Shown one piece after another: positions 1-61,965 of a stretch of DNA of 64,000 nucleotides (positions are counted from its first letter, which is position 1; each line of letters opens with the position of its first letter). Origin of the DNA: Podarcis pityusensis (lineage: Eukaryota); NCBI GenBank assembly GCA_964106645.2, contig OZ067052.1. One strand, given 5' to 3'. Position numbers and translations under genes: made by a program. The notes beneath the pieces were generated by a model. It saw nothing but the letters and a program-made list of their open reading frames with translations. It was not told where the DNA came from and did no database searches.

Positions 1-513
1 TAAAGTTATTAATTTTGCTACTGGTGTCATTTTCCATTTACAAAACAATGAAGCAAAGGATTTAATTATGCAGGCTTAAAAATAGAAGACGGTGTATTTT
101 GCAGGCCCAGGGATTCAAGACATGCATACAAACAAAGGCAACTGTCTGTGGGTTTTGCATCAAGGGCTGTGGCAGCAGCACAGGAAGGGAAAGCAGCAGC
201 CCAGGTGAAATTAGCCACTCTCTCCCCATAAATCTCTGGGAAATTCAAACAGCCATTAATGTTTGTAGACATTTTAAGCGATGATTTCATAATCGCGCCA
301 ATCTATCTGTGGCTTTGCTATAGATGAGGGTCGTTTGGTTTAATGTACGTTTCAGTCTTCATTGCCTTTTAACTAGTTTTTAATCAGTAATTATTGCCGA
401 GCTGGAATGGTATGCGCAGTCCTTCCTGCCCGCTTCCCCGGAAGAGTGCCAGTCAATATGTCATGTCAATTAGCCCGCGGTGCGTGGGCTGGCAGGAAGC
501 GCCGGATCTCTCA

Positions 514-528
514 CTAGCAGAGGGCAGC
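514..528 (+). promoter_or_regulatory. Candidate CTCF site
   Basis: CTAGCAGAGGGCAGC differs at one position from the CTCF core CCAGCAGAGGGCAGC and sits in a CpG-retaining, repeat-free block. Confidence 0.45.
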
Positions 529-1224
529 TGGATAACTAGCCTGTCTGTCTGATCAACCTGGGGGAGTGTGGTGGGGAATCTCCCCCTCCCTCCACTCACA
601 TTTGCAATTTCCCCCCAGGCATCTCAGGGCAGGAAAGGCCAGGACAGCTAAGTTGTGCAAATTAAAGGAATGCCAGTGCCTTTGGGTTTGCTTGCAACCA
701 AAGCAAATAAGAAAGTGAACCAAGATTCCCTTTTCAGTTAAGATAAGTTAGTTTTGGTGATAATTTGTGCTGCTTCCCAGTGCACTTGTGTATTCACTAT
801 TCTGATAGATGCTTGTACTGTTCTGTGGTCCAGCTTGTTACCACATCAAATACAGGCACATAAATATCCATGTTACCCTCCTCCTGTTTATGTCACAAGC
901 TTTCCCTCTTATATTTTAGTTGTGTGCCATAATTTTCTCACATTGCCCTTCTTTGGGATCAGTTTTCTTCTTGTTTATTTTACCCCTGTGTCCTGCTGCT
1001 GTACCTTGTGTTACCTTTCTGATTGGTTTGCTCTTAGAAAATGCTGTATCGCTGTATTACTGTTTCCCCAAAGCACATTTTTCCTCGAGTACTGTTGTGT
1101 TTTAATGCAAGGTTTCACCAACTAAATAATTGCACTCCCTCATCTCATGGAACAGGTTCCTAAGCATGGGAATGCAAGGTAGTATTCCACAGTCTGGGAA
1201 TACAAGGTGGGGAATTTAAAGATG

Positions 1225-1525
1225 GGGGGGGGATTTGATTCAGTGCTCATTTAAAGGTGGCTGTACCTAATTCACAGTTTCCAAAACAATTTGCAAACCA
1301 AAAATGTTGCCATCTTCCAAAATTTGCAGTTTTCTGAAATTTGCGATGCAGTTCGCCAGTCAAGTAATGTGTATAAATTCACACTGAAACACTGGCGAAT
1401 TTTTAGGAAGATTTTTTTTTTACATTTAAAAAAATAAATAAATGTGGAAATGTGGAGAACTGAACTAAGATAGGAAAAAGGAGAAACTGAGAGAAACCAA
1501 AACTGGCAGATTCACCCATCACTAA
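1225..1525. mobile_element. Degenerate squamate non-autonomous repeat (related pieces at 8763-8805 and 12705-12965)
   Basis: Shared ggatt(t)gattcagt(t/g)c(g/t)catttaaag start; TAGGGAT/CATC(A/C)CTA-like termini; the 12.7-kb copy is in reverse orientation. Confidence 0.45.
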
Positions 1526-1909
1526 TGGTGATACAATATAGTCTTTTTAGCTGTGGCACCAACATGCTGGAACCTGCTCTTCCAATAGACTCATGTTACC
1601 CCCTTCTTAATCAGATTTTAGATTTCAAGTGAAGACTTAATTTCAGACAGCATCTTGGGATCTACTAAGTGCATGACTCTGGATTTAATGGTGGATGCTT
1701 TTGAATGTTTTTCTGTTTTTTGTTTTTTATTGATTTATGCTCTTGGAGATGTTCAGAGTGCATTTTAAGTAAGTAGAGAGTGTCCTTGTACATCAGGGAT
1801 TAGGGGATTAGATCAAATAATTCTGTATCCAGGAGTGAGCCCCAACACCGCTTTTTGCTAAAAATTAACCAGTGCTTTATCTATAATGATTCCTCCCATA
1901 ACAATTGTA

Positions 1910-2127
1910 CAGTAGTACCTCTGGTTAAGAACTTAATTCGTTCTGGAGGTCCTTTCTTAACCTGAAACTGTTCTTAACCTGAGGTACCACTTTAGCTAAT
2001 GGGGCCTCCCGCTGCTGCCGCCGTGCAGTTTCTGTTCTCATCCTGAGGTAAAGTTCTTAACCAGAGGTACTACTTCCGGGTTAGCGGAGTCTGTAACCTG
2101 AAGCGTTTGTAACCCAAGGTACCACTG
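1910..2127. mobile_element. Tc1/mariner-pogo-type MITE, TA target-site duplication
   Basis: TA|CAGTAGTACCTC...AAGGTACCACTG|TA, with terminal inverted repeats and internal TTAACCTGA repeats. Confidence 0.85.
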
Positions 2128-2900
2128 TAGTTTGATGAGTGTGCTGCGTACCCTTCTAAATACATCCCTAGCCCTAAACGGTACTTCACAGGGTTCTTTG
2201 GTACAGTATAGAGGGAATCACTCCTAGACCATTGAAAGTTTATCATATAAGTATAATTGGGGATCTGAGGTGACCTGCAAAAGTGAGTTTGGTCTATCTC
2301 ATCTGTCCAACAATCTATCTGCTACATTGTTCTGGTTGTTGTTGGATAATGCGGCTTTATCATAAAAGAATACCCAAATACGTAGGCTTTATAGTAATAA
2401 AGGGCTGAGATTTTTTTTCTTTTTCCCCTGGATAGATAGGTGACACGTATTAATGGGTATAATTGTTCAAGGATGAGAATGATAGCTCATTACTGAAAAG
2501 CAGATGTTGCACCAAGTTGAGTTATGCATCATGAAAGCAAAGAGTTGACGGGACAAATGGAGAAGGGAAGCAACATTTCTCCAGAGCATCGATATAGGCT
2601 GCATGTGGCAAGGATTTATTGTGCTACTATGCATTTCTGCCTCCCCAGAAACTTGTGATATTGGAGTATAGCTTTCACCCACCTTATGAAGTTGCTGCAA
2701 GGTTTATTGTGATGATGTACACATGAGGTGTCTCATATGGAGTCGGGCTGCAGGCCATCCTGTCCAACACTGTCTACTCTGACCAGCACCAACTCTCCCA
2801 AGGTCTTTGGCAGAGGTAGATCTTTTCCCAGCCTTCTGTCGGAGATTCTTTTCACTTCATCCTTTAAGTGACAGTGCAGGGTTCCTTGCACTGATATAAC

Positions 2901-3560
2901 TACATTCAGGTAGTGATGGCTGCTGACTTGGATGGCTTTAAAATAGGGTTAAACACAAAAATGGTGGGTAAGGCTAGCTATGGCTATTAGCCATGCTGGC
3001 TATGTTCCTAATAATAATAATAATAATAATATATTTATATCCAACCCATCTGGCTGGGCTTCCCCAGCCACTCTGGGCGGCTTCCAACAAAATATTAAAA
3101 TACAGTAATGCATCAAACATTAAAAGCTTCCCTAAACAGGGCTGCCTTCAGATGTCTTCTAAAAGTCTGGTAGTTGTTCTTCTCTTTGGCATCCGGTGGG
3201 AGGGCGTTCCACAGGGTGGGTGCCACTACCGAGAAGGCCCTCTGCCTGGTTCCCTCTAACTTGGCTTCTCGCAGTGAGGAAACCGCCAGAAGGCCCTCGG
3301 CACTGGACTTCAGTGTCTGGGTAGAATGATGGGGGTGGAGACGCTCCTTCAGATATACTGGACTAAGGCCATGCCACTGTTGGAGGTCTGAATGCTATCT
3401 GAATACCACTTGCTGCGAATTGTAGCTGGGAAGAGTGCTGTTGTGCTCAGTTCCTGCTTTTGGGCTTCCCACTGGAGCATCCAGTCGGCCGCGGTGAGAA
3501 CAGGATGTTGAACTGGGCAGGCTTCTGGCCTGATCCAGCAGCGCTCTTTCTATGTTCTTG
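2901..3560 (+). mobile_element. CR1-type LINE 3' end interrupted by an L2 insertion (3009-3370)
   Basis: Typical squamate CR1 3'UTR pieces (gatggctttaaaatagggtta...ctattagccatg; gaataccacttgctg...ggcctgatccagca...ttctatgttct) flank the L2 fragment. Confidence 0.65.
3009..3370 (-). mobile_element. L2 LINE 3' fragment with (TAA)n tail
   Basis: (ata)n tail then ccatctggctgggcttccccagccactctgggcggcttcc...gccactaccgagaaggccctctgcctgg; homologous copies at 7681-7925 and 37903-38005. Confidence 0.75.
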
Positions 3561-3753
3561 TAACTTTTTGTTCCAACGCACACTGGGCTGTGCTGACATG
3601 TGGCTGAATTTGTGGCAGCACAGAAGACTTTTAAGATGGCTCGGGTCCGATATTGTGATAATAGGGGGCGTTTGTGAAAATATCATTTTAAAAAAATAAA
3701 AAAGATGGCTCACGTCTCTTCTTCAGTATCAGTGCACAGCAAACTAGCAGGTA

Positions 3754-3995
3754 CAGTGGTACCTTAGGTTACATACGCTTCAGGTTACATACGCTTCAGG
3801 TTACAGATTCCGCTAACCCAGAAATAGTGCTTCAGGTTAAGAACTTTGCTTCAGGATGGGAACAGAAATCATGCTCCGGCGGCGTGGCAGCAGCAGGAGG
3901 CCCCATTAGCTAAAGTGGTGCTTCAGGTTAAGTACAGTTTCAGGTTAGGAACGGACCTCCGGAACAAATTATGTACTTAACCCGAGGTACCACTG
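3754..3995. mobile_element. Second copy of the same MITE, opposite orientation
   Basis: TA|CAGTGGTACCTTAGGTTAC...AACCCGAGGTACCACTG|TA; reverse-complement homology to 1910-2127. Confidence 0.85.
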
Positions 3996-5084
3996 TATTG
4001 TTTCGCTCTGTGTGTCCACAGTGGTTCCCCATGAACTCAGATGGAAAGCAGGATGGGGCAAAAAAAGAACCTCCCTTCCTCAGCTCCGTCCTATTTAGAG
4101 CTCTAGGGGGGACCTCCTTGACAGGGACAGATTTGAGATGTCTCTTGTCAAAGGCCCTCTGGTGTCATGCCTTCTCTTGTCAGTGGGCCCACAGGCAGCT
4201 TGCTTAGCAGTGGCAGCAGAAGGTCTCTGAATTAGAGCTGGTGGGGTCCCATAAACATTTTCCATAATGGCCAGGGTGATGTTAACATCCCTTTTGCCCA
4301 TGCATCAGGGCTGCTTCCTGCTATTCTCTTCTCACTGAACATGTTACCAATGACACCAAGGTCTACCTCACCTATGATCCTATCAGTTCTTAGCCCTTTC
4401 CTGGTTCTCCCACTGGCAGTGGGGGTTCTCCCCACCAGTCCTAGGTCCATCTTACTTATCCCTCTCTCTGTGTCATCCTCGCCCCCTTGCCATGTACTAA
4501 TAGTTGTCGGAGCCAAGATTCTCACGCAGCTGTTACCCTAAGCCACTGTGGAACACCAGGAGACAGTGGGTATATTGCATCCACATTTAAGGGGCTTCAT
4601 TTAGGTGATTTACTGTTTTATTCCACCCCGCCCCCCAAATTAAGAGACCGTCCTTATGGTGGTATTGCCACAATATCCTGGAAACAAAGTCTGTGTGGAT
4701 CTGACACAAACAGCTTTGCTACATAAAAAGGGATCTGTTTACATCACTGTGTCTGTCAACACAAGAGGCGAGTTTTCCTTCTGGCCTTTGCAGATGGCTT
4801 CCCTTTCACAGAGTCGCAAATTTACAAGATGCCATGGATATGCACCATGCTTTTAAAAAAGCAAATTAGCAGCTGCCTCTGTGACTTGGATTGGCAAACA
4901 AAAGGGCTGTTTTGCAAAGGGAGGAAAACGAGGTCCGAAATACCTTCCACATTACAGAAACACTGAAGGGTGGGGGGGGGGATCCAACCATTTATTTATC
5001 ATTCATTTACCACTGATTTTCAATCATAATTATTGTCATCATTTAATATTTTAAGATACAGTTGATAGGTTCTTCATTTTATTG

Positions 5085-5590
5085 TGTACTGGATGCTTGG
5101 TGGTTGGCATCTGTCAGTCTAGGGAGATAATCGAAGCGTGCACCTTTGAGGGTGAATTTAAATCGTTGGAGAGCTACTGTGCCTGTTTTGCCTATAGAGA
5201 CCAATATGGGAGAGACATGTTTTATTGCAGCTGGAGCAGCGTCCGGTTGTGTTGCTGTAGATGCACCATGGCGTTACTTTTCTCTGTGCTCCTCCCAGTG
5301 GTCATTCCTCCTCTGGTGACTGCTGTGGATACAGGACCTGACTGTCTGTCTCCAGGCACTGCAGTCATCTGCAAGGGATTCCCACACGGCAGGGCTGATG
5401 TTGCCAGCCTTCATGTCACTTTGCAGACATCTTTGTAACGCAGAGTTGGTCTGCCAACGGGCCTGGTGCCTAAAGCCAGCTCCCTGTAGAGCACATATCT
5501 GGGATCCTGCTATCTTCCATTCTGTGGACATGACCACAGGAGAGTGACCAAGCTGGGAATGTGGGCTTGCGAGAGCGCATCTTTCTTTGA
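5085..5590 (-). mobile_element. RTE-clade LINE 3' fragment (degenerate ORF C-terminus)
   Basis: The minus strand translates with frameshifts to GHVHRMED-RIP-YVLYRELALGTRPVGRPTLRYKDVCK and WESLADDCSAWRQTV, the motif pattern of the RTE ORF C-terminus. Confidence 0.75.
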
Positions 5591-6204
5591 GAGACTGTCC
5601 TGCCCAAAATCTCCCTGAAGCAGTGCATGTGGGAGGCGTGGAAGCATCACTCCTGGAGGGTGTCGATTGTGTACTACTGGACATGAATAGGTGGCAAGTA
5701 ACAAGTTTTGGAAACAGAATTAGAAATGGTGGCAAGAGCGTCAGTAGGCCTTGTCCTTCCAGCAACAGCCCGCCCCCTCAAGGTAGGTGAGGGAAGCCAT
5801 TTTCTATTCTTGTCAATTTGGCGCCTCAGCCTTCATTCCTTCTCAGAAAGTCAGTATGTTTTCAAAAACGTGTGTGGCCTAATGGGATCTGGGTGAGTGG
5901 GTGGCTGTGTTCCTTTTTGTTCTATCTGAATAACTGAATGTGAGACAGATTGTGAGCTGTTGTGAGAAGTTATTGGATCTGCTGGGTCATCTCTGTGAAC
6001 TGTGGCTGCATATGTGGCCAAGAGACTGAACTATAAGCAGAGAAATCTCACCCACTACCACAAAGTGACCAGGCGGCTTAGGCAAGTCGTTTTGGCTACA
6101 CCTTGGCGCCTGACCTCCCTTGTTAAGTTGATGACACCAGCCTACTTTCCAGGGTTGCTGTAAGGATTCTAACAAGATAATGCTCCATTTAATGGCTAGG
6201 TATT

Positions 6205-6325
6205 TGTTGGTAGAACATGAGACTCTTAATCTCAGGGTTGTGGGTTCGAGTCTTACGATGGGTGAAAGATTCCTGCATTGAAGGGGGTGGATTAGATGGT
6301 CCCTTCCAACTCTACAATTCTATTA
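6205..6325 (+). mobile_element. tRNA-derived SINE with CR1-like tail
   Basis: ggtagaacatgagactcttaatctcagggttgtgggttcgag resembles tRNA-Lys with a B box; tail ggtcccttccaactctacaattcta. Confidence 0.75.
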
Positions 6326-7589
6326 GATCTCTGTGATTAATACAAATCACCATTCAGCCATGAAGTTGTTTAGTGCCTTTGGGCAAGGAGCCTCAGCCTG
6401 AGATGTCTTTCAGGGTAGGCAGGTGCAAAATCTTCTCCCTCATACAGTGGCTGTGGTAATAGAGTCTGTTAAAGGTTATAAAAAGCTTCAGAGAGCTGTT
6501 TGGATCTCCTCACTGCAGATCCTTTGTAGTCAGGGTTGCTCTGGATCTTTTGTGGTCATGGGTCTCTTCATGGGGGTCTTTTCTGATGCTGAGGGCCTCA
6601 GGCTCCCCCCACCCCACCTCTGGATTGTGTGTTTGTTGAATAGCCAATTCTGACTGTTTTATGAGCATAGATGACAGCATGACAAAGCATCTGTAAGTGG
6701 ATTCATGGCATGATATCAAAGGGGGTCTGTCTAGCCCAGCAGCTGTTGCTGGTAAAAAAAAAAGGGGGGGGGGAGGGAACCAAACAAAGCCAGGACCTCT
6801 TGGAAACAGCCCTTTTGCTTTCTTTCACTAAAAAGCTAAAATAAGGGCTTCCCTTTCAACAGTGGCTGCCCGAGAAATTGCCTCTTAGAGTTCACATTTT
6901 TCACACAAGCCTGTAAAAGGTTTTGTTTCTCCACCGGTAAACTAATACAGGAAATGGGGTCAAGTGTCAGGAAACAATTGGGGGACCCCTAGACTCAGTG
7001 GGGGCCCTGTATTCAACAACGCTGGAGGTAAAGAGTCTAGGAATAATCCCCTTTCTGTGCTTTTAAAAAATGAGAGTGAATCCTTGTGCATCATATGACA
7101 TGTTAAATGATACAGATAGCTAGATATATTAAGTGAGCCAAAACACTTGGTTTTCCTTGCGGCACGTTAGAACATGGGACTGTACAATGAAAACGTAAGC
7201 AAACTCATGGAGGAGAGGTTTCTATGCTGCCTCCATTTTCAAAGGCAGTATATTATGCCACTAGTAGAAGCTGGGGAGCCACAATGGGGAGTGGACTATT
7301 TCCATCATGCAGGTGGCATCTCTCAGTGGTTGTACCTAGATCACAGAATGCCCTCCAGGATTTCTGCCAGGTTCCACCTCTTGTTGCATTTAGGTCGGCA
7401 GTTAGGACTTGTTGCTGCCGCTGTTCCAGCAAGCTTTAAATCTCTGAAGATTGCTCTGTAAAATTGGCACTGCTATCCGTGTTTCATTGTCATGTTGTTT
7501 TATGTTAGAATTACTGGTTTTTGATGTCTGACTCTTCTTTTGTTTTGATTAAGTCATAAGCTGCTTTGAATGCAACATACCAAAGTGTT

Positions 7590-7627
<38 letters not shown>

Positions 7628-7680
7628 GAATGAATTAGAGTTTTGAAATAAACAAGGAAGTGGTAGCGAGGCCAGTGGCA

Positions 7681-7925
7681 TAACAACAACAACAACAATA
7701 ATTATTATATATTTTTTATTTATACCTTGCCCATCTGGCTGGGTTTCCCCAGTTGCTCTAGATGGCTTACAGCATATACTGAAACATAATAAAACATCAA
7801 ACATTAAAAATTTCCTGATACAGGGCTGCCTTCAGATGTCTTCTAAAAGTTATGCAGTTCTTTATCTCCTTGACATCTGAAGGGAGGGTGCCACTACTGT
7901 GAAGGCCCTCTGCCTGGTTCCCTGT
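7681..7925 (-). mobile_element. L2 LINE 3' fragment
   Basis: Homologous to 3009-3260 (cagggctgccttcagatgtcttctaaaag; gaaggccctctgcctggttccct). Confidence 0.75.
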
Positions 7926-9746
7926 AAATAATAAGGCATGATCTTCCTTAGGACAGAATATGACTCACCTGTGGCTCCCAACTAGGGATGTAATAAGGCT
8001 TCCTTTTCTGCTCTGCTCTGCACTTGTCACACGCAGCACTGTTTCCATTCTGCTGCAGGTCATCTTCCGTCAAAAACTAGGTTGTTTGCCTTGCACACCA
8101 CTGTGGCAAAATTACATAACTTATGTAGTTTTTGCAATTGATTGATTGATTGATTAAATTTATATACCACCCTGTACCTGCATGTTTCTCTTAATTCCAT
8201 AGATTATGCAGTTACATCACCATTACATTATTCCACTCTTTCATTTCAGAGAAAAGGAAACCCAGTTGCAGATGTGTTTGTTTGTGTGGGGTGTTAATCA
8301 ATTATCAATTTGCGGACTCAAAACAACAGTGTATACCGATCGTATTCACTGGATCAATTTCCATTCCAGATATGGGATGAATAAGGAAACCCTGGCACCT
8401 TCTGCTCCCATTTTCATTGGAATTCTCTGACATCCCTACTCCCAACGCAGCAATCTTAAGGTTGCTGCTGGGTGTCAGGTGGTTCTAATGCACTGGTGAA
8501 CCCCAGGGACCAGCTGCTTAGCAACATTGACTCTCACACTTGCTTCTGCAACTGGCTCCTAGGGGGGCGGCATTTGCGTCCAGCTCCTCACCCTCCTCTT
8601 GCCAATCAGTCATGGCATGGTGTTGGGTGCTAGGAGTGCTTAGATCTCCGAATTTGTTTTGGGGATAACATCACCTTTACTAATCAATGGCCACTGTTAT
8701 CCTAGCTGGGAGAGCACCATCTTTTAGGCAGCCCAATCCCATGCATGTTTAAGCAGCAGCTGTTAGGGATACGGAAGGAGTTGGATTCAGTTCGCATTTA
8801 AAGCCCTTCCAGACATCTTTTTTTATTTCACATTCACGATGTTTTGTGCTCATGCTGGTATCGGGGCAGTTAAATACAACCCCACTTTCACTCCTGTTTG
8901 CTCTTGCAAAAGTTTCAGGGCAGGCCTATAGCTTTGTTTCCAATCGGTGCATGTCCCATAGCTTCCTGCTGAAATCCTATAATTTTTCATATCAGAAATG
9001 TTCTGGGGAGCTGTGTGCCTGTGTGGTATAGCACTTTTGTTGCACTATAAAAAAAGCAGAATGTGTGGACACTACCATTGCACCATTACTGTGTAACTGA
9101 TATGCTGCAGAATATAACTGCCTCCAAAAAACTTTTCTGGAGGGGCTCAAGCATGTAAAGTGTGAATGCACTCACATCTGTCAATTCAAAATTCTTGGCT
9201 ACCCTGATCTGATAGTTTAGAATAAAAGCTAATTCCCTAGAGGAAGTGGAAGAGATGATTCACTTTGATCAAGTTTGTTTACCATGCTTATAGGAGTCAA
9301 TTGTTGGTTGGGCCATTATAGAAGGCAGTTATTTGATCTTCTCCATATGTGTGAGGGTTGTGTGTGTGGTGGGGGGAGGAGTAGAATAGAAAAAATTCTA
9401 TTTTTGAAAGAAAGAAAAAGGAAGATCCTTAGGGTAATAATCAGTCTGAATTACAGCTTTCAAAATTAATGCCATGCAGGGGTGGCAAGTATAACGTGTG
9501 CATTTTTAATCGGTGCACCCCCCCGTCGGTAATCAATATGCTGTATAACGAATGAGCTTTAATAAGCACACTCTGTTTTATTATTCTTATTAATAATAAG
9601 GAGGCCCTTGAAAATATCCATGAAAGGAGGCACTTAAGTTGATAATTAATAAATGCTGGTTTTGGTTTCCGCTGCTAAACAGCTTCCATGAGTGGGCTTG
9701 ATAGCGGCTAGATCTTCATTCCAGCAGCAGAGGGAGGAAGATGAAA

Positions 9747-9748
9747 GT

Positions 9749-9801
<53 letters not shown>
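9747..9801. repeat. Compound microsatellite (TG)n(AG)n; other (TG)n at ~7592-7623 and ~13551-13584
   Basis: Directly visible. Confidence 0.95.
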
Positions 9802-9804
<3 letters not shown>

Positions 9805-10065
9805 TGCAGATTAATAAGCAACTATAGCAGAAACTGCTTAACACAATGGAGTTATTTTGTTCTCCAGTTAGGAACATGAGGCAAGGTGGTGAGCTCAGCA
9901 AAAGTTCAGCTATGGCAAAAATTGCACCATCTTGGCTGGGTTGGGTCATTTCCCTACCTAAAAAGAAAACTTTTTCAAAGTAGCTTTAATTTGTTCCTCC
10001 TACAGCATCCCTCTCTGGATGGAAACTGTATGACAATTTATGATAAACAAAATCAGTAACTTGTA

Positions 10066-17900: not shown

Positions 17901-20392
17901 GGTGGTACTCTGATGTCATCTACATTGATTAAAGAGTAATAAAAAAAAAATTCCCTGACTTTTTTTTTTTTACACACTTGACTCTCAGGGAATTTGGTTT
18001 GCAGTTAATTACTTTTCTTCCTTTATTATTATTAATAGTATTATTATTATTTAGTGTACTACTTGATCAAGTCTCAATTTTAAAAAGCGTCCAGCATTCT
18101 GGCTTTTAAACCTGGTTGTTTTGAAATAAAATAATAATAATAATAATAATACAACCAAAGACATTACACAACCAACCAACAAACAAAAAACAACCCAAAA
18201 CCAACAACAAACAAAGAAACCCATGTTTTTTGTTGTTTAAAAACAAGACCCTCCCCCCTCCTTATGGTTAGCATTATGGTGCCTCGGTGAGTGTTCAAAG
18301 ATGCTTTGCTCTAACTTGTCTATTGAACAACTATGTTAGCCTACTTGTTAGTAAAGTTTTACAAAAATAGGAGCGCAGCAGCTTTTTTTTCTCTTAACAA
18401 ATGTCGCATTCAGTGTCTTATTCTGGCTGTACCTAGAGTACCAAATTTATAAACGTAACAATTTAAAAAAATATTAATAAACCTTGTCAATATTAATGTT
18501 AAAAAAAAGAATATATCCACACTATAGTTATGCTTGTAATATCACCTACTGTGTTGTACTTCGAGTTGCTGTTGCTGGCCTATTTGACCCATATTTAAAA
18601 AATTAAATTAAAAAATATCCTTCATAAGACTCCTCCCCAGCAGAGGACCATATATATAACAGCCAAACATTAAACATGTGCAAATTGGAAATTGTCAGTT
18701 TTTCCCTACCAGTCACAGTGCAATGATGTTTTTTATACATATTTTTTTTCAAATCTGTTTTCATCTACAATAAATTAAATCTTCTCTTGCGTCTAGGGTG
18801 ATAAACTTGTAGCACTGAGGTATTCAGAACAATATTTTCTTTTTTTTAAAAAAACAACAACTTTGCTTTCCCTAATTTGTTAATATAGGAAAGAATGGAT
18901 GAGGTGAGAAGATGCAAGGCTTAATTTGCACCCCCTGCCCACAGCGTGGGAGCTTCCAAGTGGACTCGCTTGGCCAGAGAGCTATAGAAGGCGTCAGGGT
19001 GGCTGAAATGGATGGACAGTCAGTCAGGTGATCTAAAGAATGGTTAAAAAAAGTGTGCTTGGATTTTTAAATACCGTCTTAAATATTATATTTGTAGCTT
19101 TTTCAATCTTGGGGAAAGCAGTCCCCCCCCCCTTCTTAACTTAAAAATGTAACTAGACTGTTACTTTATAAGCTGTGCACAGATGTCTAGTTAATATGCT
19201 GGTATGACGCTAGTACAGTTATAAGGTCTAACACCTACAGAGCAAGCTAAACAGTGTTGATCTAACTGCTATGGGCCAGCTCTGGCAGTCGATCTCAAAC
19301 GTTTAAAAATGTCAGGGTGCAACCCACTGGGAGCTTTGCCGTTCCATATACTGGCGAGATGAATGGGAGCCAGGAAGGGCAGTTCCCTGCCCTTGGGCCT
19401 CTTCTGTTCACTTGCAGAAGAGAAGCTTCCAGCAGATTGGGGGCCCCTAATCTTTGTCTTTTTCTTCCGTTCAGTACAGAAACTGCCTTAGTCTGACTCC
19501 ATCACAAAAATATTATGCATTTCTCTTTTTTAATAGTTTATATGTAAGTTAATGGAATTGTATTTACAGTATTATTATTTTTTCAGAAATCACAATTTCA
19601 AAAAACCTTATATCGCCTCTTTTTCAACAACAAAAAATGCACTTATAGAAAAAGGACGCACAAAAAACTTTGTAGTCCTTGCCTTATTGCCGAAAATAGA
19701 TATAATTAGGTTAACTGATACAAAGAACTGCTAGAGATCTTGTTACTGAGCCAGCCTCCCATTCCCTATACAGCATAAATAGAATATGTCCGCTCACTTG
19801 TCTTGCTTGCTCTACTTCTAAATTCAGTGTGTGCTAAATTCCACCTGAAAAAAGTTTTTTTAGCTTCAGAATTGGTACCAGTCAACTGAGAATCGTGTTA
19901 CCACTTCAGCTTCTTTTAAGCGACGAAAGTACATAAAACAAAATAAAGGGGTGGGAGGTTATTAAAAAGCAAAGCCAAAAAAAAAAAAAAAAAATCCTCG
20001 TAATATATAAACAGTTATATTATGGTTAGGCTTTTTCTAAATACACAAAGTAGTAGGTCTACGTGACTACAAGCCTATGTCAAAATACTACAAAAGAGTG
20101 ATTAAAATAGATTTCAAAGGGGAAAAAACATCAAGAAAAATAATAAAATGAACAAAATGGATTATATATATATACACATATTCTTTTCTTTAAAAAGCTG
20201 TTGTTCTATATAGTACAGCAGGTTCGTGAGATGATAGAGATTGTGGACAACCCAAGTCCGCTGAATGCCACCTCCAGTTTGTGTGGGTTATTGGTGATGA
20301 TGCAATGCTCAAAGTCTGATTGATGATGTATCACCTAAACATGGAACCATTCAGAAACTTCGCCCTGTCTTGCCTGGACATCCAGATATACT
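14950..20392 (-). other. MSI2: MSI2 terminal exon / ~5.4-kb 3'UTR
   Basis: Long pyrimidine tract then gctgtag|AGTATATCTGGATGTCCAGGCAAGAC. The sequence is AU-rich, ORF-poor and nearly free of transposons. It ends with AATAAA at 15051-15046 and 14976-14971, then GU-rich gtgttgtatgatgtgtc. The 3' end position is approximate. Confidence 0.85.
14971..14976 (-). terminator. Distal polyadenylation signal AATAAA of MSI2 (second copy at 15046-15051)
   Basis: Plus strand tttatt = minus AATAAA, followed ~20 nt later by CA and a GU-rich downstream element. Confidence 0.75.
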
Positions 20393-21253
20393 CTACAGCG
20401 CGTTTTTTGAAAAGGAAAAAGAGAGGGAGAGAGTGTGAATAGATAAAAACAGCAACAATTATAGCCAACACTTCAGAGACATGTTACTAGTTCTAGGGGC
20501 CTTTTTATGGGTTTTATGGTCACACGTTGAATGTGGTGTACCTGGGATGTCATTTGTTTCCCAACAGGCCACCATACGTCTGTGTTAAATGGCGAGGGAC
20601 TTATGCATGTTGATATCCAGAGCTTTGTGTGACCAACCATGTTAAGAATATCAAAATGCTGCACCGCATCAGCTCAAGTTCAGAAACAGGGAAAGTGGAA
20701 TTCTGGCGCTTACATACACTATTCAATTATGTCGTATGCCTCCTTATTCTGTGATTCACAGGGAGCTATTCGGCGTGCACAAGTCCCCTCCCCTGACCGG
20801 TGGAAAGCAGATTTAGCCTCCCCACACCCAACTTCTGATATGTTAGCGGGCACGGCTTCCGGGTATAAGGTTAGAATTTAATCTTTTTTCTTTTTTTTTA
20901 AAGAAAGCTGAAATTCTTAGGGAATCTGATTTCGGTGGCTAATATCAAATTCTCCAGCTTTCTGCCGCTCTAGTGGCACCGCAGCATACCCATAGGAGTC
21001 TATTATTCATGTGGTAACTGCACCTATCTGCCGAGAAACGTGATAGGGAAAGAGGAACTGGGGTGATTGAGACTCTTAGGCAAATGGCCTACAAGGGGAG
21101 CTAAATGGTAACTTACACATAGTATGAATTACCCTTAGAACAGAAACAGGGAGCTAATGCTGCAAACAGGGACTCTCTGCTTCTAGGTCCATGCAAGAAA
21201 ATCAGGGTTATGTTAAGTGCCAGGGATGTTAATATTGACAATAACTTGGTCCT

Positions 21254-21428: not shown

Positions 21429-24400
21429 AAGTGTTGTCTTCCTTTTAAGGCCGTGCACTGTGGAGCCACAAGGTCCTAAAAATTAAGAGTTCAAGGCAAA
21501 CCCTTTAAAATTTTTATAGGTTGGAGTTACTTGTAAGTGAGAAGAACTTCTGTTTCCTTCGGGTTCTTGGAAGGAAGTCATGGGTCTGAGATGGCTCCTC
21601 CTACTGCGTGTTGCCCCCAAAGGGTTTTTCTTCATACCATCCTCATGGGCTTTGGAGACATTATCCCTGTTGGCCAGCTCCTCCACCCACAACCTGCCCC
21701 TGCATGTTTATCATGGATTCCTGGGGGAATCTACTGCTGGTGCATTCAGCTTTCCCATCACCTTAGGCAGGAAGTAGTGTCACTTGTTGACTAGTTTGTG
21801 TGATGGTTTATGTTTTCCTGGTATGCCCCATTCAGCTTTTCATAACTCTTGAATATGGAGATTGATGCATGGCCATGCAGTGCCGCTGGTCTGGAAAGGG
21901 AGCTTTTGGCTTCTTACAGCAGTTCCAGGAGCCTCCTTGCTTTCACCTCTCAGGAGAGGGAACACTCAAGAGAGCCTCTGCCCTAGGCATTCTAACTTCC
22001 TGCTGTATGCCTTCTTGAACAGGCTGGCCTTGCTGGTTCCATGCCTTATGGAATGTGCCACTAAGATGGACCACTTGTGTCCAGAAGATGGAGAATAGGA
22101 AAGAGGAGGAAGAAGAGGAAGAAGAGGGCAGAAGGAATGCTGACTTAGTGCACCATTCTTCCTTCAACGGGGCTTAGGTACATATTTACCCCTTTCCAGT
22201 CCTGGACAGGGGGACTGCAATGGTAGGGAAGGGCCTGTTGCTGGTGAGAACCTGGCAACCTGCATCTCTCTGACCAGTACCCCTGTAAAACATTTGAGAG
22301 TTCCTTTTCCCCAGACAAGCGCAGTATTGAGAGGACTTAACCCCCTCCACTGACAGTTCACTTGCAGCCCAGGGCTTTAGCCTTCCTTGGACGTGGCTTG
22401 GTGGGCTCTCCTGTTCACCTGCTTCAGAGGCCTCTGGTTCCTACAACACGTTTCCCTTTGAGGGTGACTTTGCCCTGCTGTGGGGCATAGTGTTTGGCTC
22501 CTGATGCCAGCCAAGGCTGAGGTGCGGGTGGGGAGAGATCCAAATGGGCTCTGCAGGCTTCTCCATCACCTCAGTGAATCTCATGGTGCCTGCTTGCTGT
22601 GATGAGCAATTACGCCAACCCTCTCAGCCATATGGGCACAATCTTCTCCACTGTCCCACTTGGGGCTCCTCTCTCTCTCTGCCTCCTCCTCCTCTTCTGT
22701 GCAATTGTGCCAGTGTGAACCACAAACTTCCTGTGCTACAGGAACAGCCTTCCAAATGCCCCCAGTTTCTAACAGCAGATGGGGAGTGAAAGGGGAGGCA
22801 GGGAGAGAGAGAAAAGCACAGAAGAAGGGAATACAGAAGACAAGCTAGGAGCTCCAGTTGATCCCAACCATCCAGCTCATGAGGCAGGGTGGTCTGGTGA
22901 GAAGGATGTTCCCTCCCCCTGGTTAGTATCATATAATTGGGGCCATAATTGGATCCAGCCAGAGGGAGGAGCCATTCCAGACACATGGCTGCTCTCCAGG
23001 AACCTGTGGGGGAACTTCATTTACACATTTTTTAGAAAAGTAAGAGATGTGGTTGGCAAACAACTTGGATGAAAAAACATGCCAATAGTTGATGTAAAGT
23101 CTTCCTTTTTCTGAAACAAACAGGCCCTCTTCACAGGACTTCAAAACCAAGTATGAAGGTGAAGCTGTGCTCTTTGATGCAGGTGGTGGTGCATTGAAGG
23201 GCAAAAATAAAGAGTGTGGCATGAAAAGGGAAGAGAGAGTGGCATGTAACTAAGCAACATGGTGGAGTTAAGAAAGAGCCATGCTGAATTTGTAATAATG
23301 ACTTGGATATGGAAGTGATTGTTATTGAATCCCACCGGTACCTAATTTTTTATTTTTCTTACTGGCTTCAGCGAATATAATCAGTGAGAATGAGACAACT
23401 AAATAACGCGTGTTCACACTGCCTCTCTAAAAATTAACTTCATGTTTCTATCCACCAAGCTCTTTATTCATTCTACTTGGCCTGGTGCCAGAAGGGATAC
23501 CCTCTCCCAACACACCTGAAATCAGGCCTCACATATCAAGAAGTTCCCTAGAAGATGTTCTCAGAGCAAGGCCCTGGGTTTAAGGCAGCAAAAGGCATTT
23601 GTGGCAAAGTCCTCCTTGAAAAGAACAGAGCGAAACTTGAGTCACAGCTAACTCAAATCATGCTGGTGTCAGGAATTAGCCATGGCTAGTTGTTGTTGTT
23701 GTGTTTTTGTTTTTTTTTGCCAGTTTGTGCCCACTCGGCTATCAGGCTTTGGGTCTGTTTCAAGCAAGGCCTCTCTCTGGAAACCTCTTGAGTAGCTTGG
23801 CTTTTCCAATAGGCTTATGGGAAGCTGTCAGACAAGGCAGCTGCAATGGTCTTGGTGTTTAGGGGGAGACGTGAAAAATACAGGTTGGAGTGGAAGCTAT
23901 GAACCAGTAAATCATGAACTGAGCTATGCTAGTATCTCCGCTTCAACTGCGATCTGATCTGCAGTTCTACCTACCTACCATGCAGGGCTGTTGTGAGAAT
24001 TACTGAAATGTTGTGTGCGAAGGACTTCACTGACTCCAATGCTAAGCATAAAAATAATGATCAGCAGAACTATGTGGACTGAATGGTACAAACTTTATGT
24101 AATTGGGAACAGGTTAGGAAAGGCCATTCCAGGGCCTGTTATTGCCTGAAGATGTGTGTTTGTGTGGTTGGCAGAAGAAACAAGGATTGCTGCAAAAGAT
24201 ATTCTCAACAAGGCTCACAGAGGACTAGACATCTCTGAAGCTACAGTAGAAGATACCTAGTGGAGTGAAGAAAACATGGCGCACAAATTACAGACATGCT
24301 CTTCATTTGAAATGGGCTTATTTCAGCCACTGCTTATTGCCTTGTTAATGGCGGTTACAGCGCTCATGTGGGTACTGGGTGAATTAATGCCGTATGGTTA

Positions 24401-25854: not shown

Positions 25855-26006
25855 TCTTACAAGGAAAAAAGGATTTAAAGACAGGAAGAAAGAAAAGTGT
25901 AAGAATGTAAAAACAAATGACAAAATATAAGGGACATAGTTGAAAATATAAATGCTATATACTGGAATACCTCCAAGTGAGATGGCAACCAACCCTGTGT
26001 AACGTT

Positions 26007-26048
26007 TCAATGGTATCCATTTGTAAAAGCCGTTGCAATCAAAGGCCC
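26007..26048 (-). CDS. MSI2: MSI2 last coding segment GPLIATAFTNGYH-stop (exon 25971-26048)
   Basis: caattttag|GGG CCT TTG ATT GCA ACG GCT TTT ACA AAT GGA TAC CAT TGA is the hallmark Musashi C-terminus. Donor TTGGAG|gtattc at 25971/25970. Confidence 0.97.
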   Translation of the reverse strand, partial: GPLIATAFTNGYH

Positions 26049-28607: not shown

Positions 28608-28762
28608 AGCAATTCCATGCCCAAAGCCGGAGCCAGGCTGGGGGCTGGCAGCACTTATGTAGTTACCAACACCGGAGTCTTGACTGGCTGTACCGTAGAG
28701 GTCTGCAACGGGACCCGGGCTGTTCGCCCCTGGGAATCCTCCGGGCCGGGCTGGGTTGGAGC
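28608..28762 (-). CDS. MSI2: MSI2 coding exon [52 protein letters not shown] (155 nt, phase 1-0)
   Basis: Acceptor cccggcag|GC TCC AAC and donor ATT GCT|gtaagt. Near-identical to the MSI2 C-terminal region (ORF 28548..28814). Confidence 0.97.
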
Positions 28763-28816
28763 CTGCCGGGGAAGCGGGTGCGCCAAAATTCGGTTGAGCA
28801 CTGTAGCTATTCAAGA
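28763..28816 (-). CDS. MSI2: MSI2 alternative 3' splice-site extension (54 nt, 18 aa [18 protein letters not shown])
   Basis: Acceptor ctctgcacaccag|TCTTGAATAGCTAC. The peptide matches the 18-aa insert of the long mammalian Msi2 isoform; in frame. Confidence 0.88.
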
Positions 28817-41155: not shown

Positions 41156-41332
41156 CTGGGCTTTTAAATTGATCCGGGCTGGGAAGGTGGTGAAGGGGGG
41201 AGTTACTCGCTGAAGCAGGGTGCTCGCTACGAAGCATCTGAGCCACCCGAGGCCCCATGGAACCATAGTCCGCGTACGATAATTGAGCCCGTTGGTCACC
41301 GGGCGGAGAATAGAAACCGTAATCGGGGATCC
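41156..41332 (-). CDS. MSI2: MSI2 cassette exon, 177 nt, phase 1-1: (G)IPDYGFYSPPGDQRAQLSYADYGSMGPRVAQMLRSEHPASASNSPLHHLPSPDQFKSP(G)
   Basis: Acceptor gtatctccag|GG ATC CCC and donor AGC CCA G|gtttgt. It is 59 codons with no stop in the MSI2 frame, CpG-rich within an AT-rich intron, and has a Musashi-like G/Y/S/P composition. Confidence 0.82.
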
Positions 41333-54534: not shown

Positions 54535-56296
54535 ATGCATCTTCTTTTTACCACACTATAGAGTGAAAATTAGTAGGTGCATTAAGATGCATTAAGATTT
54601 TCTCTTTCTATTGCATCAGCTGTCCAGGGCTACAGTTGTAATTATTGGGTCTTTCAGAGGAGAAAGACATTCGAAAACCACTTGCTATCCCCCAGGTGGT
54701 GCTTGTTAACATTCTGACTACATGACTTGGATTAAATGTTATACACTTTTTAGACAGTAATACATATACATTTAAGCATCCAGGGCTTGCTTCAAGGTCT
54801 ATCCCTTGGACTGTGAAGAAAACACAAGTGGCTATTCAAACTGTTCCAACATTGTTGCTACAAATTTCCCCATCATCATTCTGTGTACACAAACCAACTG
54901 TTGCTCCCATCTTTTTTCTTTTTTTATTACTGCAATTTGCAAACAAGAGAGGTGCTTAATGACAAGACTAAATATTTGAAAGTACTGGAATTAAGTGTAC
55001 GACGTGGATTGCTACTTCCCATGCAATTTTCCGCTTTGCTAACTTTTAGATACGTTACCCATCTAATTTTCCTGCATCACACATTTAACAGTGGGCCCCA
55101 TTCCTTGTAGTAGATTTGCTGCTTAAGAGACAAGTTATAGAATCATACCTCAAGTGCGTAAGATTTACAACTATACTGGCACAATAAGGGAAGTGGGACA
55201 CCTTCAATCAATGAAGGGTATGTACTTGCCATCTGGGTCAACAACATGGGGGGGGGGCAGTCTGTGTGTTTTACGATTTGTTAGAACAATATTCTTAACT
55301 GCATAATGAAACAATATTTAGCGTACCTTATTTCTTCCAGTAACATATGCTGAGTTAACTGCTTGGATTTAACCGTCTACACTGAGCATGCTCAGTAAAT
55401 TGAACACACTCCAAACCAGCAGTGCATCTTCAGGCAAGATGTCGAACTGGGTGGGAGGGGAACGGTGATGTACGCAATCTACTCTCAGCAGGATATGTGC
55501 TGACAAAACAGTAGCAGCCACAAACCAAATGTAATGTGGCATTCAGGACTTGAATTACCAGCTGCCAACCCTACCCACTGCTGCTCATTTGGAAAACAAT
55601 TTTGAGAAGCTGAGTACAGAAAACTAGGTGCAAAAAAGAAAGAAAGAAAGAAATGCAGGGAGGGAGAAGAAGCAAAAGACAATTTTGCTGGTTTGATGAG
55701 GAAGATGATGAGACTTGCCTTGGGACACCTAATATTGACTGTTCATGAAATGTTCAGTAGTGCTTGAGGGGAGAAAAAAACCAAAACATTATCCTAAAAC
55801 TTGGCAATGTGGGAATGAATACAAACAGTGGCAAGTTTGTGGCGTAGCCAAATTTGCACTTTAGGATCTAAAACCAATTCCCTTGTGCCTCTGCATACTC
55901 TGACGGTTAGTCATTGTACATACTCTCCATGACTTAGGTCTCCAATGGACGGCTTTCCTGCTCTGCCGGCCTGGTTTAAGGCCTCCAAAAAGGATTCGGA
56001 GCGCTAATGCAGAATATTAAGAAGGTTAATGTTCTGTAGGAAGCCTTGAGTGTACAATGCTTGCTGAAATTAAACTTGGCCTCAAATCATAAAGCACTTA
56101 CATATGAGTAACTCCCATTGGCTTAAGTGGGAACTACTCACAAGTAAGTGTACTTAGAATTAAAAGAAGGGTCACTTTTTTTCTTTTACAACGGTCAATT
56201 GACTACCCCCCGCCAGACCACCAAGGGCCCTTGCAGAATAATAAAATGTCCTGATTGAATTTGGTAGGCCCAAGTTTGGGAGATAATGATCACTGT

Positions 56297-56464
56297 ACTA
56301 TGCATCCAGGTGTTCAGCATTGCTCTACACAGGTTGACCTACACTTCCAATCAAACCGCGGCTACACTGCAACTGCCATGCTCTTTCGAGCCGACAAGAA
56401 CCTATAATATCAACTCAACAATGCATGTTCTACAACTACGTCTACTGCTACCGGTTACAACTAC
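56297..56464 (-). promoter_or_regulatory. Cluster of 10 RUAG Musashi-binding-type motifs in the MSI2 intron
   Basis: Plus-strand CTA at 56298, 56325, 56339, 56362, 56402, 56430, 56436, 56442, 56448 and 56461. All read GUAG or AUAG on the transcript; three are full (G/A)UAGU elements. Confidence 0.6.
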
Positions 56465-56562
56465 GACAAGTGCATGCATTTAGTTCAGTCCCACAGATAC
56501 ATAACACTCTAAGAACAGGCAAGGGGAGATGTGAGATGTTTCACGAACAACAAGTGTTTTGT

Positions 56563-56568
56563 TTTATT
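56563..56568 (-). terminator. Intronic polyadenylation signal AATAAA for the candidate alternative last exon
   Basis: Minus strand cttacttAATAAAacaaaacacttgttgttcgtg, preceded by ~140 nt of U-rich UTR-like sequence. Confidence 0.55.
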
Positions 56569-56720: not shown

Positions 56721-59700
56721 CTGAACAAGCAAAAAAAACATGCAACCAGCTGCTACTAACAAGAAGCTGGACACAGAGAGAGGATTAATAGGTGTGGACA
56801 AACCTTCCTGCTGAGCGTGCTCAGAAGAGTGTTTGAGAGGAGTGCACGTCCCAGTGTAAGAGAGGCCGGAAAGAATGCCTCAGAGACACCCTCTCTCACA
56901 GCAGCCCCAACCAAGCAAGAGAGAAAACAACAAGAACATAACTGCTCACACTCACCATCAAGGTCAGTAGCTCATGTTATGAGATTGGTTATAGCTGGCA
57001 AGTATAAAGGACAGTAAGGAACTGGTGAACTCAGGATTTCAGAAGTAGGAGCAGGACTTTGGCCAAGGTGCAGGGGAGCAAGAAGGAACTCTGGGGGATC
57101 TTTCTGTTTGGGAGTTTTACCACTTCGTTCTTAGTGCAGTCACTCACAAGTGGTCAAGCAAGTAGACTTTGGTGCCTCCCCACGGCCAGGCAACAGAATC
57201 ACTGGCCATCTCATTTTCCAGCCACGAGGGAAGAAACTAAAGCCACAGAACTATCTGGCTAATGCATTTTACTTTCCAAATTTTATATTCCTTTAAAAAA
57301 CAAAGCAAAACCCCGAATTAACCCCGCTTCCCAACTTCACCTTTGTGAAACAAAGAAGCAAACAGCATTTTCAGGAAAGGGTGGAATCGGCTCAGTGTAC
57401 TATTAACGGGGTAGAAGAACGGACATGGTGGTCTTCCACCATCTATCCAAATAAAGCGTGTGAGGGGTGCTCCATGCAGGGGCCTGTATGCATGATGGCC
57501 CAATGCAGGAGGAATTGCATGAATCAGGGCACTGGATACACAGAGCTCCCCCATGGGGGAGGAGAAGGGCACCCACCCACTTCATGGACTGCTGACGATG
57601 CTTGGTTGAGTGTCTGAACTGGGCGGCGGCGGGGGGGGGGGAGGGCACACTAAACACTGGTGCTTTAAATATGCCAGAGGAAAAAATCACCTCAAACCAT
57701 CAATACCTTTCCAGTAAACTCTGCCCCAATGGCTCCCTTCCCTACAAGTGGATTTTGCCAACAGGCAAAGAGGTTTGTGCATCAAGCTGCCACCTCCATC
57801 AAACTGAATGGGGAAGCCTGCCCACGAAATCCATACATGCTCGGAATTGTAACAGAAAAGTGCTATTGATAGTGAAACTTGTGCATTGGAAGAGTTTGTT
57901 ACAAGATGCAGACCATCATGCCAATGTGACCCAGGTCCTGATTCATCAATAACATAATAAGCGGAAAGTGAAACGTTGTCAAGGTGGGTGTAAAGGCTTG
58001 GCTTATATGGAGGGTTGCGATGTCCTCAACAATTGCGTGGTTTTAATAACGGTCGGGCTAACGTTTTGGCACATGGGCACTGCCCATGATGGTTACCAGG
58101 CAGAGCCTCTTTGGTGATAGTCCCACAGCTGCAGAACTCCCTCCCAAAGGAGATAAGATAGGCCCCTTCTACAATGCCATTTAGGTAGGTGGCGGTCAAT
58201 ACATTCTTTTTCCTGCCAAACTTTTAGTTCGTGTTGGGAGGCTGGTTTCATTTGCTTTATCTTGGCTTCTCTCAATGCTCTCCAGTTGTAATTACAGAAG
58301 TGTTTTCACTGTTGTAACCTGCCTTGGGGGACCTTTCAGGGCTGAAAGAAGGTATATAAATGTTTCTATAAATATGAACGAAGAAACATACAGCCCCAGC
58401 TCCCAGGCTAATATCGCCCTGTGATCCTCAGATGAAAGGTAGTATAGCAATTTAGTAAATAAAAAATAAAAATAAAACAAATGTTTCCCCACCAGAATTA
58501 AAAGCATAGGCCCTTGATCCAGGGAGGGGTCATCTGCCTGTGGATTGTAATTAGTAGAGTACCCGTACGGGATGCACAAGAGGCCAGAGTGGGGAGTGAG
58601 GACAGAATTCTCTGCATCCAACAGCCAGCCTTATGAAGTGTGGTTTAAAGATCCATGAACACACAAATTCTTATGTTATGAACCACCCTGAGACCTGAGA
58701 GTATAGGGTGGTATACTATTTTAATAAATAATAATAATTGTGTGTACGGCAGTGCTGCAATCACAGGGCCCAACTACCAACTTCTGCAGGGGTGCAGACC
58801 TTCCCCCCCCCAAAAAAAATCTGTTCAGCAGTGAGAGATCAATAAATATACACTGAACTGATGTCTTGTGGTTTAGACATTTAACATTCGTACATCTTAA
58901 GACACAGGTGTGTCTTCGCTTTAGTAGTCACTTAAGTCATCTTGCAAGTGTGCCCCAAGTGATATTGCTCTAATCATCAAAATATTGAAGCCAATTACTT
59001 CCATTTGTCATTCCCCCTCTGTAATGAATCAGGCCTGAGTGCCATTAACATGAAGCTGACTCCATTGCTCTTAAATACACTTCACTATCAATGCTATTCC
59101 CTTTGATGGAAATGGCTGCAAATGGAATGCTGTCCCTGAGCTGAAGAGGCTTCTTTGTCAATGGAAACCACTTCTGCACATCAACAGACAGTTTCCTTGA
59201 GGGAGCATTAGGGTAGATCTGCAAGTGCAGAGTTTTTCCCCCCCAAAACACACAAGAAATATATACAGGGCACCATACTGCTCTTTAAACTTGCCATATA
59301 TGTTGGTGTTAATTTCAGGGTTAGAATTTTCTTTTTTTTCTTTTTTGGTATCACAAAGTTAATCTGTTCTTTAAAAAAGAAAAAAAAAATCCAAAAAAAT
59401 TAAACAAAAAAACAAAAAAAACAACCAAATGATATCAAGCAGAGAAATTGGCTGACACTCAGTTCAGCTGTGATGGGACACTCTGATTAAAACAGGACAA
59501 CAGTGAAGATCAGACTTAATCTGGCAGAACCCTTGTCCTTTTTGTGGGAAAATTGATCATCTCTATTTAAAATTAAACTGGAACCAAATGGGCCCAAAGT
59601 GTAGGTAAGGGACGAGGGAATCTGTCCATTCTTCCTCAAATAATAAATGGAATCCTTTTCAGAAAAGGATTTTGAAAAAGGAAAAAAAAAATCCCTTTGC

Positions 59701-61848: not shown

Positions 61849-61905
61849 CTGGCCCTGCATTCTGAAGGTATGCCATGTAGCCGCCTCTTCCACGGCCCCC
61901 CCTAC
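61849..61905 (-). CDS. MSI2: MSI2 alternative 5' splice-site extension (57 nt, 19 aa: GRGGRGRGGYMAYLQNAGP)
   Basis: The frame stays open past the first donor to a second donor CCAG|gtaaaa (GT at 61848-61847). Length is a multiple of 3. The peptide appears in ORF 61571..61927. Confidence 0.78.
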
Positions 61906-61965
61906 CTGATCCTCTTGCTGCTGCCACTGCCGCTGCTACTGGTCCGTAGGCTGCTGCCGGAAAAC
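61906..61965 (-). CDS. MSI2: Musashi-2 internal coding exon (Ala-rich, phase 1-1): (G)[19 protein letters not shown](G)
   Basis: Minus strand reads ...tttttccccacggccag|GTTTTCCGGCAGCAGCCTACGGACCAGTAGCAGCGGCAGTGGCAGCAGCAAGAGGATCAG|gtaggg. The peptide matches the known MSI2 segment [21 protein letters not shown]; AG/GT sites are canonical; 60 nt. Confidence 0.96.

Follow-up and report, generated by a model that had tools for sequence, protein, structure and literature searches.

A purine-led UAG array downstream of a conserved frameshifting exon in MSI2 intron 11: a candidate Musashi-responsive element

The window, a 64,000-nt stretch of DNA from Podarcis pityusensis, contains the gene MSI2 on its minus strand, and the exon peptides are identical to lacertid MSI2 isoforms. 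We number the exons after the human gene as in PMC5599597. The array studied here sits 5.4 kb below exon 11, within intron 11 (33 kb), in keeping with the sequence-only reading, which had placed it on the transcript strand of an MSI2 intron. The exons are located as follows.

61906..61965, minus strand: exon 11 with a phase-1 donor, translation identical to lacertid MSI2 isoforms
61849..61905, minus strand: exon 11 lengthened by 57 nt to an alternative donor, found in isoforms of lizard, shark, lungfish, teleost, turtle and marsupial
41156..41332, minus strand: 177-nt in-frame cassette exon, identical to lacertid isoforms
28608..28816, minus strand: exon 12 with a long (28816) and a short (28762) acceptor, holding the early stop of the 89-nt exon X frame (exon X is described below)
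25971..26048, minus strand: exon 13 with the normal stop, donor picked by consensus
20092..20392, minus strand: start of the last exon, acceptor 20392, first 300 nt modelled

We notice several further features of this gene map. When exon 13, or exons 12 and 13 together, are skipped, the start of the last exon (20334-20393, minus strand) is read as coding in two frames; such isoforms occur among lizard, marsupial, lungfish and fish models. The 177-nt cassette is retained in lineages from sharks to lizards. Within 300 nt below its donor, the intron contains 7 UAG (4 RUAG) and 2 GCAUG, and the first six bases of this donor are the same as those of exon X. Neither the 24-nt exon known before exon 11 nor a shark-only 21-residue exon was found in the window. 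Across positions 1-10000, the AT skew stays negative, in contrast to most of the MSI2 region; another gene, on the plus strand, may lie there.

The array and its parts are given below.

56297-56478, minus strand (transcript strand): block of the RUAG array and UGCAUG
56473..56478, minus strand: UGCAUG (RBFOX motif), 326 nt below the exon X donor
56430..56464, minus strand: five GUAG in 35 nt, with gaps of 10, 3, 3 and 3 nt between the UAGs
56298..56405, minus strand: five further RUAG and one GCAUG (56381)

On the minus strand, the block contains ten UAG, each preceded by a purine (G in eight, A in two), and the U of each UAG lies at 56463, 56450, 56444, 56438, 56432, 56404, 56364, 56341, 56327 and 56300. 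The sequence-only reading had reported this count, the purine before every UAG, the five GUAG in 35 nt and a UGCAUG, and recounting confirmed all of them, with the UGCAUG at 56478-56473. It had expected two to three UAG; the intron background gives 2.0 UAG, 1.0 RUAG and 0.5 GUAG per 168 nt. RUAG per 180 nt reaches the maximum of the window on either strand in this block (10; next best 6), as does GUAG per 40 nt (5; next best 3), and neither value is attained when the full 64 kb is simulated 300 times with Markov models of orders 2-4. The plain UAG count, however, does not stand as a signal, since 10 per 180 nt is attained by 17 of the 300 simulations and by a window on the plus strand as well. 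When the block was shuffled with dinucleotides preserved, 10 RUAG or 8 GUAG were obtained in 0 of 3000 shuffles, and 10 UAG in 0.3%. The motif excess is confined to the transcript strand. The rare feature of the array is the purine before each UAG, not the density of UAG.

No tandem repeat covers the block, as the sequence-only reading had stated, and neither a second copy in the 64-kb window nor an Rfam match was found. A tandem or dispersed repeat as the origin of the array is not supported. The retention of CpG noted in the sequence-only reading is also borne out, with seven in the block, within the top 2.3% of intron windows (mean 1.9). Two weaker RUAG clusters occur on the minus strand, one with 6 in 180 nt in the last intron (23897-24076) and the other with 4 in 40 nt in the early 3' UTR (20059-20098); both are within the simulation range.

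Upstream of the array, at a distance of 326 nt, lies a cassette that we call exon X. The features around it are as follows.

56956..56994, minus strand: possible 39-nt exon with a good acceptor, or an upstream acceptor by itself; it holds an in-frame stop, has a consensus-like donor and lies 63 nt above exon X
56893..56941, minus strand: 5' extension of exon X from a CAG acceptor at 56941; 10 of the 39 named bird and alligator exon-X isoforms start at the matching place
56804..56892, minus strand: exon X, 89-nt frameshifting cassette with donor 56804, same boundaries in shark, alligator and bird RefSeq isoforms
56753..56760, minus strand: proximal Musashi-type element with two UAG, 44 nt below the exon X donor
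56739..56744, minus strand: proximal UGCAUG (RBFOX motif), 60 nt below the exon X donor
56563..56568, minus strand: AAUAAA, probably not conserved, as the P0215 peptide cannot encode it
56480..56535, minus strand: candidate second acceptor with first base 56508, a branch-point-like motif and a pyrimidine tract; its reading stops just before the array

Exon X has tandem GAG acceptors, with the first base at 56894, 56892 or 56890. When the inserts of MSI2 proteins were mapped back to the window, that of the bamboo shark, the one hit close to the array, matched 56911-56781 in two lizard frames (E 5e-10 within the window). The identity is high across the frame change, which argues for constraint on the RNA or DNA and not on the peptide. 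Among the 196 proteins P0003-P0198, six contain exon X: five are from bamboo shark (31 residues) and one is from devil ray (25 residues). In each of them exon X keeps the frame, and between them they pair it with both exon-11 donors and with several acceptors downstream. Isoform models with exon X are known from a ray and two sharks; a search with the shark insert returned only itself among 6 candidates.

Searching with the lizard exon X translation returned 9 proteins among 324 candidates and, with clusters, 49 (P0199-P0247), 46 of which are named. Exon X occurs in 39 of the 46 named isoforms, 36 from birds (more than 20 species) and 3 from alligator. Because the 49 proteins were selected by a search with exon X and its clusters, they show its presence, not its frequency. 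In these isoforms, exon X uses six acceptors (16, 10, 7, 4, 1 and 1 isoforms), while the 37 read-through isoforms share one donor, equivalent to 56804. Three of the acceptors match lizard 56894, 56892 and 56890, and one matches the CAG at 56941. Judged from the bird peptides, the remaining two appear to be a tandem CAG pair at 56898-56906 (11 of 39 isoforms), where the lizard has no AG. The splicing of exon X is optional, as birds, alligator and sharks all have models with and without it; these isoforms are automated RefSeq-type gene models, not reads. Public gene models of bird, alligator and shark already contain exon X without comment. Among the isoforms listed from lizards (including lacertids), turtles, marsupials, monotremes, lungfish and teleosts, a part of each annotated set, none contains it. 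In a screen of sequencing runs by word matches, 14 of 24 rows, from three organisms, had half or more of the words, and six RNA rows of other organisms had a share of 0.10-0.21; these runs form no part of the evidence used here.

The size of exon X is 89 nt in the lizard, one codon longer in birds and, by peptide, 93 nt in sharks; there are further indels between the lizard and bird exons. Birds also carry one more in-frame exon, of 24 nt, located after exon 11 and before exon X (P0201, P0204-P0206, P0237-P0245); for this exon, no match in the right order was found in the lizard intron.

To follow the consequence of inclusion, we spliced the lizard exons in silico, combining 2 upstream donors, 6 exon X forms and 4 downstream paths. 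With exon X included, 48 of 48 models stop more than 55 nt above the last junction. The closest approach is 125 nt, among the 24 inclusion combinations listed. A stop more than 50-55 nt above the last junction is the rule for nonsense-mediated decay. In the frame of the 89-nt form, the stop falls in exon 12, while the four listed forms that skip exon X end at the normal stop in exon 13. The other candidate donor of exon 13, 23 nt earlier, would leave this result unchanged. In birds and alligator, 38 of 39 exon-X isoforms have an early stop (2 inside exon X, 36 in exon 12), and one alligator model (P0207) reads on to the last exon. None of the six shark and ray isoforms has an early stop from exon X. 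The many bird exon-X models suggest that inclusion is no rare event, in agreement with weak decay. In 12 of the 13 supplements of PMC11188260, Msi2 gave no hit, which is weak evidence either way on decay.

Conservation from exon X into the array was read from the peptides of gene-caller ORFs over this intron, not from a nucleotide alignment. The ORFs P0202, P0203 and P0215 match the window collinearly from 57019 to 56483, and the peptides of P0203 and P0215 are compatible with a conserved proximal UGCAUG (56739-56744). A whole-library search with P0215 gave 5 hits (E up to 0.001), and with clusters P0248-P0254 match the same region. One of them, P0251, aligns with 56732-56413 (E 6e-25 within the window). 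All 9 residues agree over the UGCAUG (56495-56469), and 12 of 13 agree over the last four GUAG (56451-56413), in a frame where each GUAG would read as valine plus a codon starting with G. The match across the GUAG cluster comes from this single ORF, in which third codon positions are unreadable and several indels separate it from the lizard. Overall, the collinear ORF matches cover 57019-56413 and end short of the last five RUAG (56405-56298). The selection that the sequence-only reading suspected is supported by these peptide-level proxies.

Below the exon X donor at 56804, the order of elements is the two UAG (+44), the UGCAUG (+60), a pyrimidine-rich stretch, the acceptor-like site at 56508 and the UGCAUG (+326), followed by the five GUAG (+340 to +374) and five RUAG with a GCAUG, extending to +504. 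The (U)GCAUG motifs are three in number, at +60, +326 and +423. In the interval 300-600 nt below the donor, exon X has 10 RUAG, against 0 or 1 for the five other donors tested.

Other targets near the array were considered. For the 39-nt candidate, the acceptor and donor regions match ORFs P0202, P0203 and P0215; its peptide was found in no isoform among 247 proteins, and so the exon at 56994-56956 is not supported as the main target of the array. Intronic polyadenylation at the AAUAAA at 56568 is weakened because P0215 cannot encode this motif. A structured RNA is not supported either, as the fold is no stronger than that of shuffles (z = -0.3, +0.6 and +1.9 for three spans). In the predicted fold, both UGCAUG are mostly paired, and 7 of the 10 RUAGs are no more open than the region median. 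We also notice a predicted local hairpin that pairs UGCAUG around the GUAG cluster, and, at longer range, a predicted pairing between 56775-56741 and 56366-56301, by which the array would come close to the donor; neither is stronger than shuffles, and we regard both as leads only.

Previous studies have shown that Musashi binds UAG with both RRMs and prefers UAG-N(1-5)-UAG, where the second UAG gives an approximately 10-fold gain (PMC12136788). Bound downstream at UAG clusters, it promotes exons, and clusters of at least three UAG are enriched up to 8-fold downstream of Musashi-promoted exons (PMC4991804; PMC9509328), with the reported enrichment lying within approximately 200 nt below the donor (PMC4991804). 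In HepG2, MSI1 overexpression raised two other MSI2 exons from 0 to 34% and 56% (PMC6952364). In the double knockout retina, a 24-nt Msi2 exon fell from approximately 0.85 to 0.38, a change confounded by the deletion of Msi2 itself (PMC9509328). These responses of MSI2 exons to overexpression and knockout indicate that Musashi reaches MSI2 pre-mRNA. According to supplementary file 5 of PMC6952364, the exon that rose from 0 to 56% is 78 nt long and lies near the 5' end of human MSI2.

Because Musashi reaches MSI2 pre-mRNA and promotes exons from downstream UAG clusters, we read the array as an enhancer of exon X. We infer binding by Musashi and RBFOX, an activating and not a repressing effect, an action of the array on exon X, decay of the product and use of this exon in the lizard. 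When nuclear Musashi is high, Musashi, together with RBFOX, would occupy the RUAG array as an intronic downstream enhancer and would promote the inclusion of exon X. Inclusion would introduce the early stop and may lead to nonsense-mediated decay, and the loss of the included message would lower MSI2 when Musashi is abundant, forming a negative feedback. We give this reading, a Musashi/RBFOX downstream enhancer of an MSI2 poison exon in negative feedback, about an even chance of being right.

The sequence-only reading had supposed that the array controls an unnamed exon. A conserved frameshifting cassette does lie 326 nt upstream, but the array is beyond the approximately 200 nt in which enrichment of Musashi sites is reported. 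The five GUAG, with gaps of 10, 3, 3 and 3 nt, form a downstream cluster of at least three UAG spaced by up to 10-15 nt, as in Musashi targets, whereas targets mostly have the cluster within approximately 200 nt of the donor and the array occupies +326 to +504. In the proximal 200 nt or so, exon X has only the two adjacent UAG at +44. Several observations count against the enhancer reading: this 326-nt distance, the in-frame exon of sharks and ray, the mouse tables, the small number of RUAGU (3 of 10 sites), the gaps between UAGs, which are never the preferred 1-2 nt, the folding, the lack of exon X in the lacertid isoforms listed, the single ORF behind the match across the GUAG cluster, and the many bird models with the exon. 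In the mouse knockout tables (Data 12-14 of PMC9509328), two Msi2 rows are present, neither of them below exon 11; in the searched part of an earlier retina table, two Msi2 rows likewise differ from exon X. The human tables searched (PMC6952364) do not list exon X either.

An alternative is that the array is exonic. An exon starting at 56508 would stop just before the UGCAUG and would serve as an alternative 3' UTR (the next AAUAAA is at 54928) or as a second poison exon, with Musashi acting on translation or stability. The site at 56508 has a UAG acceptor, a pyrimidine tract and a branch-point-like motif 24 nt upstream, its region is conserved in the ORFs P0215, P0250, P0251 and P0252, and the array is only 30-210 nt away. 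This location would suit the 59.7% of MSI1 eCLIP sites that fall in 3' UTRs (PMC9509328). However, no isoform among 254 proteins uses the acceptor or contains the peptide of its exon, though very short exon-X endings are annotated (P0228), and the lizard and P0251 diverge in their reading downstream of the acceptor. We consider this alternative unlikely.

The array might also control exon X through other proteins or in the other direction, by RBFOX alone, by other UAG binders (unkempt, hnRNP A/B, DAZAP1) or possibly as a silencer. The hnRNP A/B proteins and DAZAP1 are UAG binders, and hnRNP A1 prefers UAGG, which occurs at only 2 of the 10 sites. Three (U)GCAUG motifs below the donor would favor RBFOX, the UAG core is common to unkempt (PMC12136788), and the splicing role of Musashi is reported as largely confined to photoreceptors. 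On the other hand, the host gene itself encodes the best-known UAG binder, and MSI1 activates other MSI2 exons (PMC6952364). Such control appears distinctly unlikely to us.

It is more improbable still that Musashi promotes exon X to make a stable protein, changing the activity of MSI2 rather than its amount. The product would be truncated in birds, crocodilians and lizards, with both RRMs and without the exon-12 phosphorylation region, and lengthened in sharks. In its favor, the 39 named isoforms are annotated as coding, with one of them, P0207, ending only in the last exon; sharks and ray carry the exon in frame; and a truncated human MSI2 variant without the exon-12 sites is functional (PMC5599597). 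Yet the six acceptors lead to different frames and endings, the lizard and bird exons differ by further indels, and the lizard model stops at least 125 nt above the last junction. Least probable by far is a DNA-level conserved element (enhancer) or a chance cluster in which the RNA motifs are incidental: the CpG excess, the choice of the window after the motif was seen and the lack of unusual RNA structure would agree with it, but the counts reached in 0 of 300 window-scale simulations, the strand asymmetry of the motifs and the conservation continuous with a spliced exon speak against it.

Returning to the Musashi/RBFOX enhancer of exon X, we speculate on a wider scenario. An exon older than the split of sharks and tetrapods, in frame in cartilaginous fish, may have become a many-acceptor poison exon in reptiles and birds, gated by a distant GUAG array and an RBFOX site that would sense a threshold of nuclear Musashi and destroy the MSI2 message. 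This would be the missing mechanism of Musashi dosage compensation; we offer the scenario tentatively and consider it rather doubtful as a whole. Sections 18-19 of a 2026 paper (PMC13175383) describe Musashi protein restored after allele loss in photoreceptors through a feedback loop and give no mechanism. For that feedback, our analysis provides a candidate with coordinates: a putative poison exon together with its proposed driver, the motif block. The level of MSI2 matters for stem cells, photoreceptors and several cancers, and if exon X exists in mammals, it would be a handle to raise or lower MSI2 with splice-switching oligonucleotides. An exon that keeps the frame in sharks and shifts it in reptiles and birds would clearly illustrate how an exon can acquire a different role.

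A literature search, which covered few subscription papers, found no description of exon X or the array, and exon X is absent from the searched parts of PMC11188260, PMC2697156, PMC4381951, PMC7948980, PMC5626838 and PMC13501125. In the accessible part of the review PMC6884704, Musashi autoregulation is given only via the Msi1 3' UTR.

Four known systems resemble the proposal. The poison cassette exons of SR proteins (SRSF3-7, 9, 10; tra-2/TRA2B; PMC6884704) are, like exon X, conserved alternative exons in genes of RNA-binding proteins, with an early stop and motifs of the own protein nearby. They differ in that most exon X acceptors act by a frameshift with the stop in the next exon, that exon X is in frame in sharks and ray, that its main motif block is 326-504 nt away, and that its regulation and decay are putative. 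Musashi-activated exons (Ttc8 exon 2A, Prom1, Cep290, Cc2d2a; PMC4991804, PMC9509328, PMC6952364) share with exon X a cluster of at least three UAG downstream of an alternative exon. Their clusters, however, are mostly found no more than approximately 200 nt from the donor, with Ttc8 extending to 320 nt. The array here lies farther away, and its target would disrupt the frame of the gene that encodes Musashi itself.

The Musashi-responsive exons of MSI2 itself, one of 24 nt that precedes exon 11 and one of 78 nt close to the 5' end, resemble exon X in that Musashi changes MSI2 splicing, which is putative for exon X. In contrast to exon X, the 24-nt exon lies upstream of exon 11, and the lengths of 24 and 78 nt are multiples of three. 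Finally, the Xenopus Musashi1 3' UTR autoregulation (PMC6884704) also has Musashi acting on its own transcript. In Xenopus, the action is cytoplasmic and forms a positive feedback on Msi1 translation, whereas the one proposed here would be nuclear, negative and directed at MSI2.
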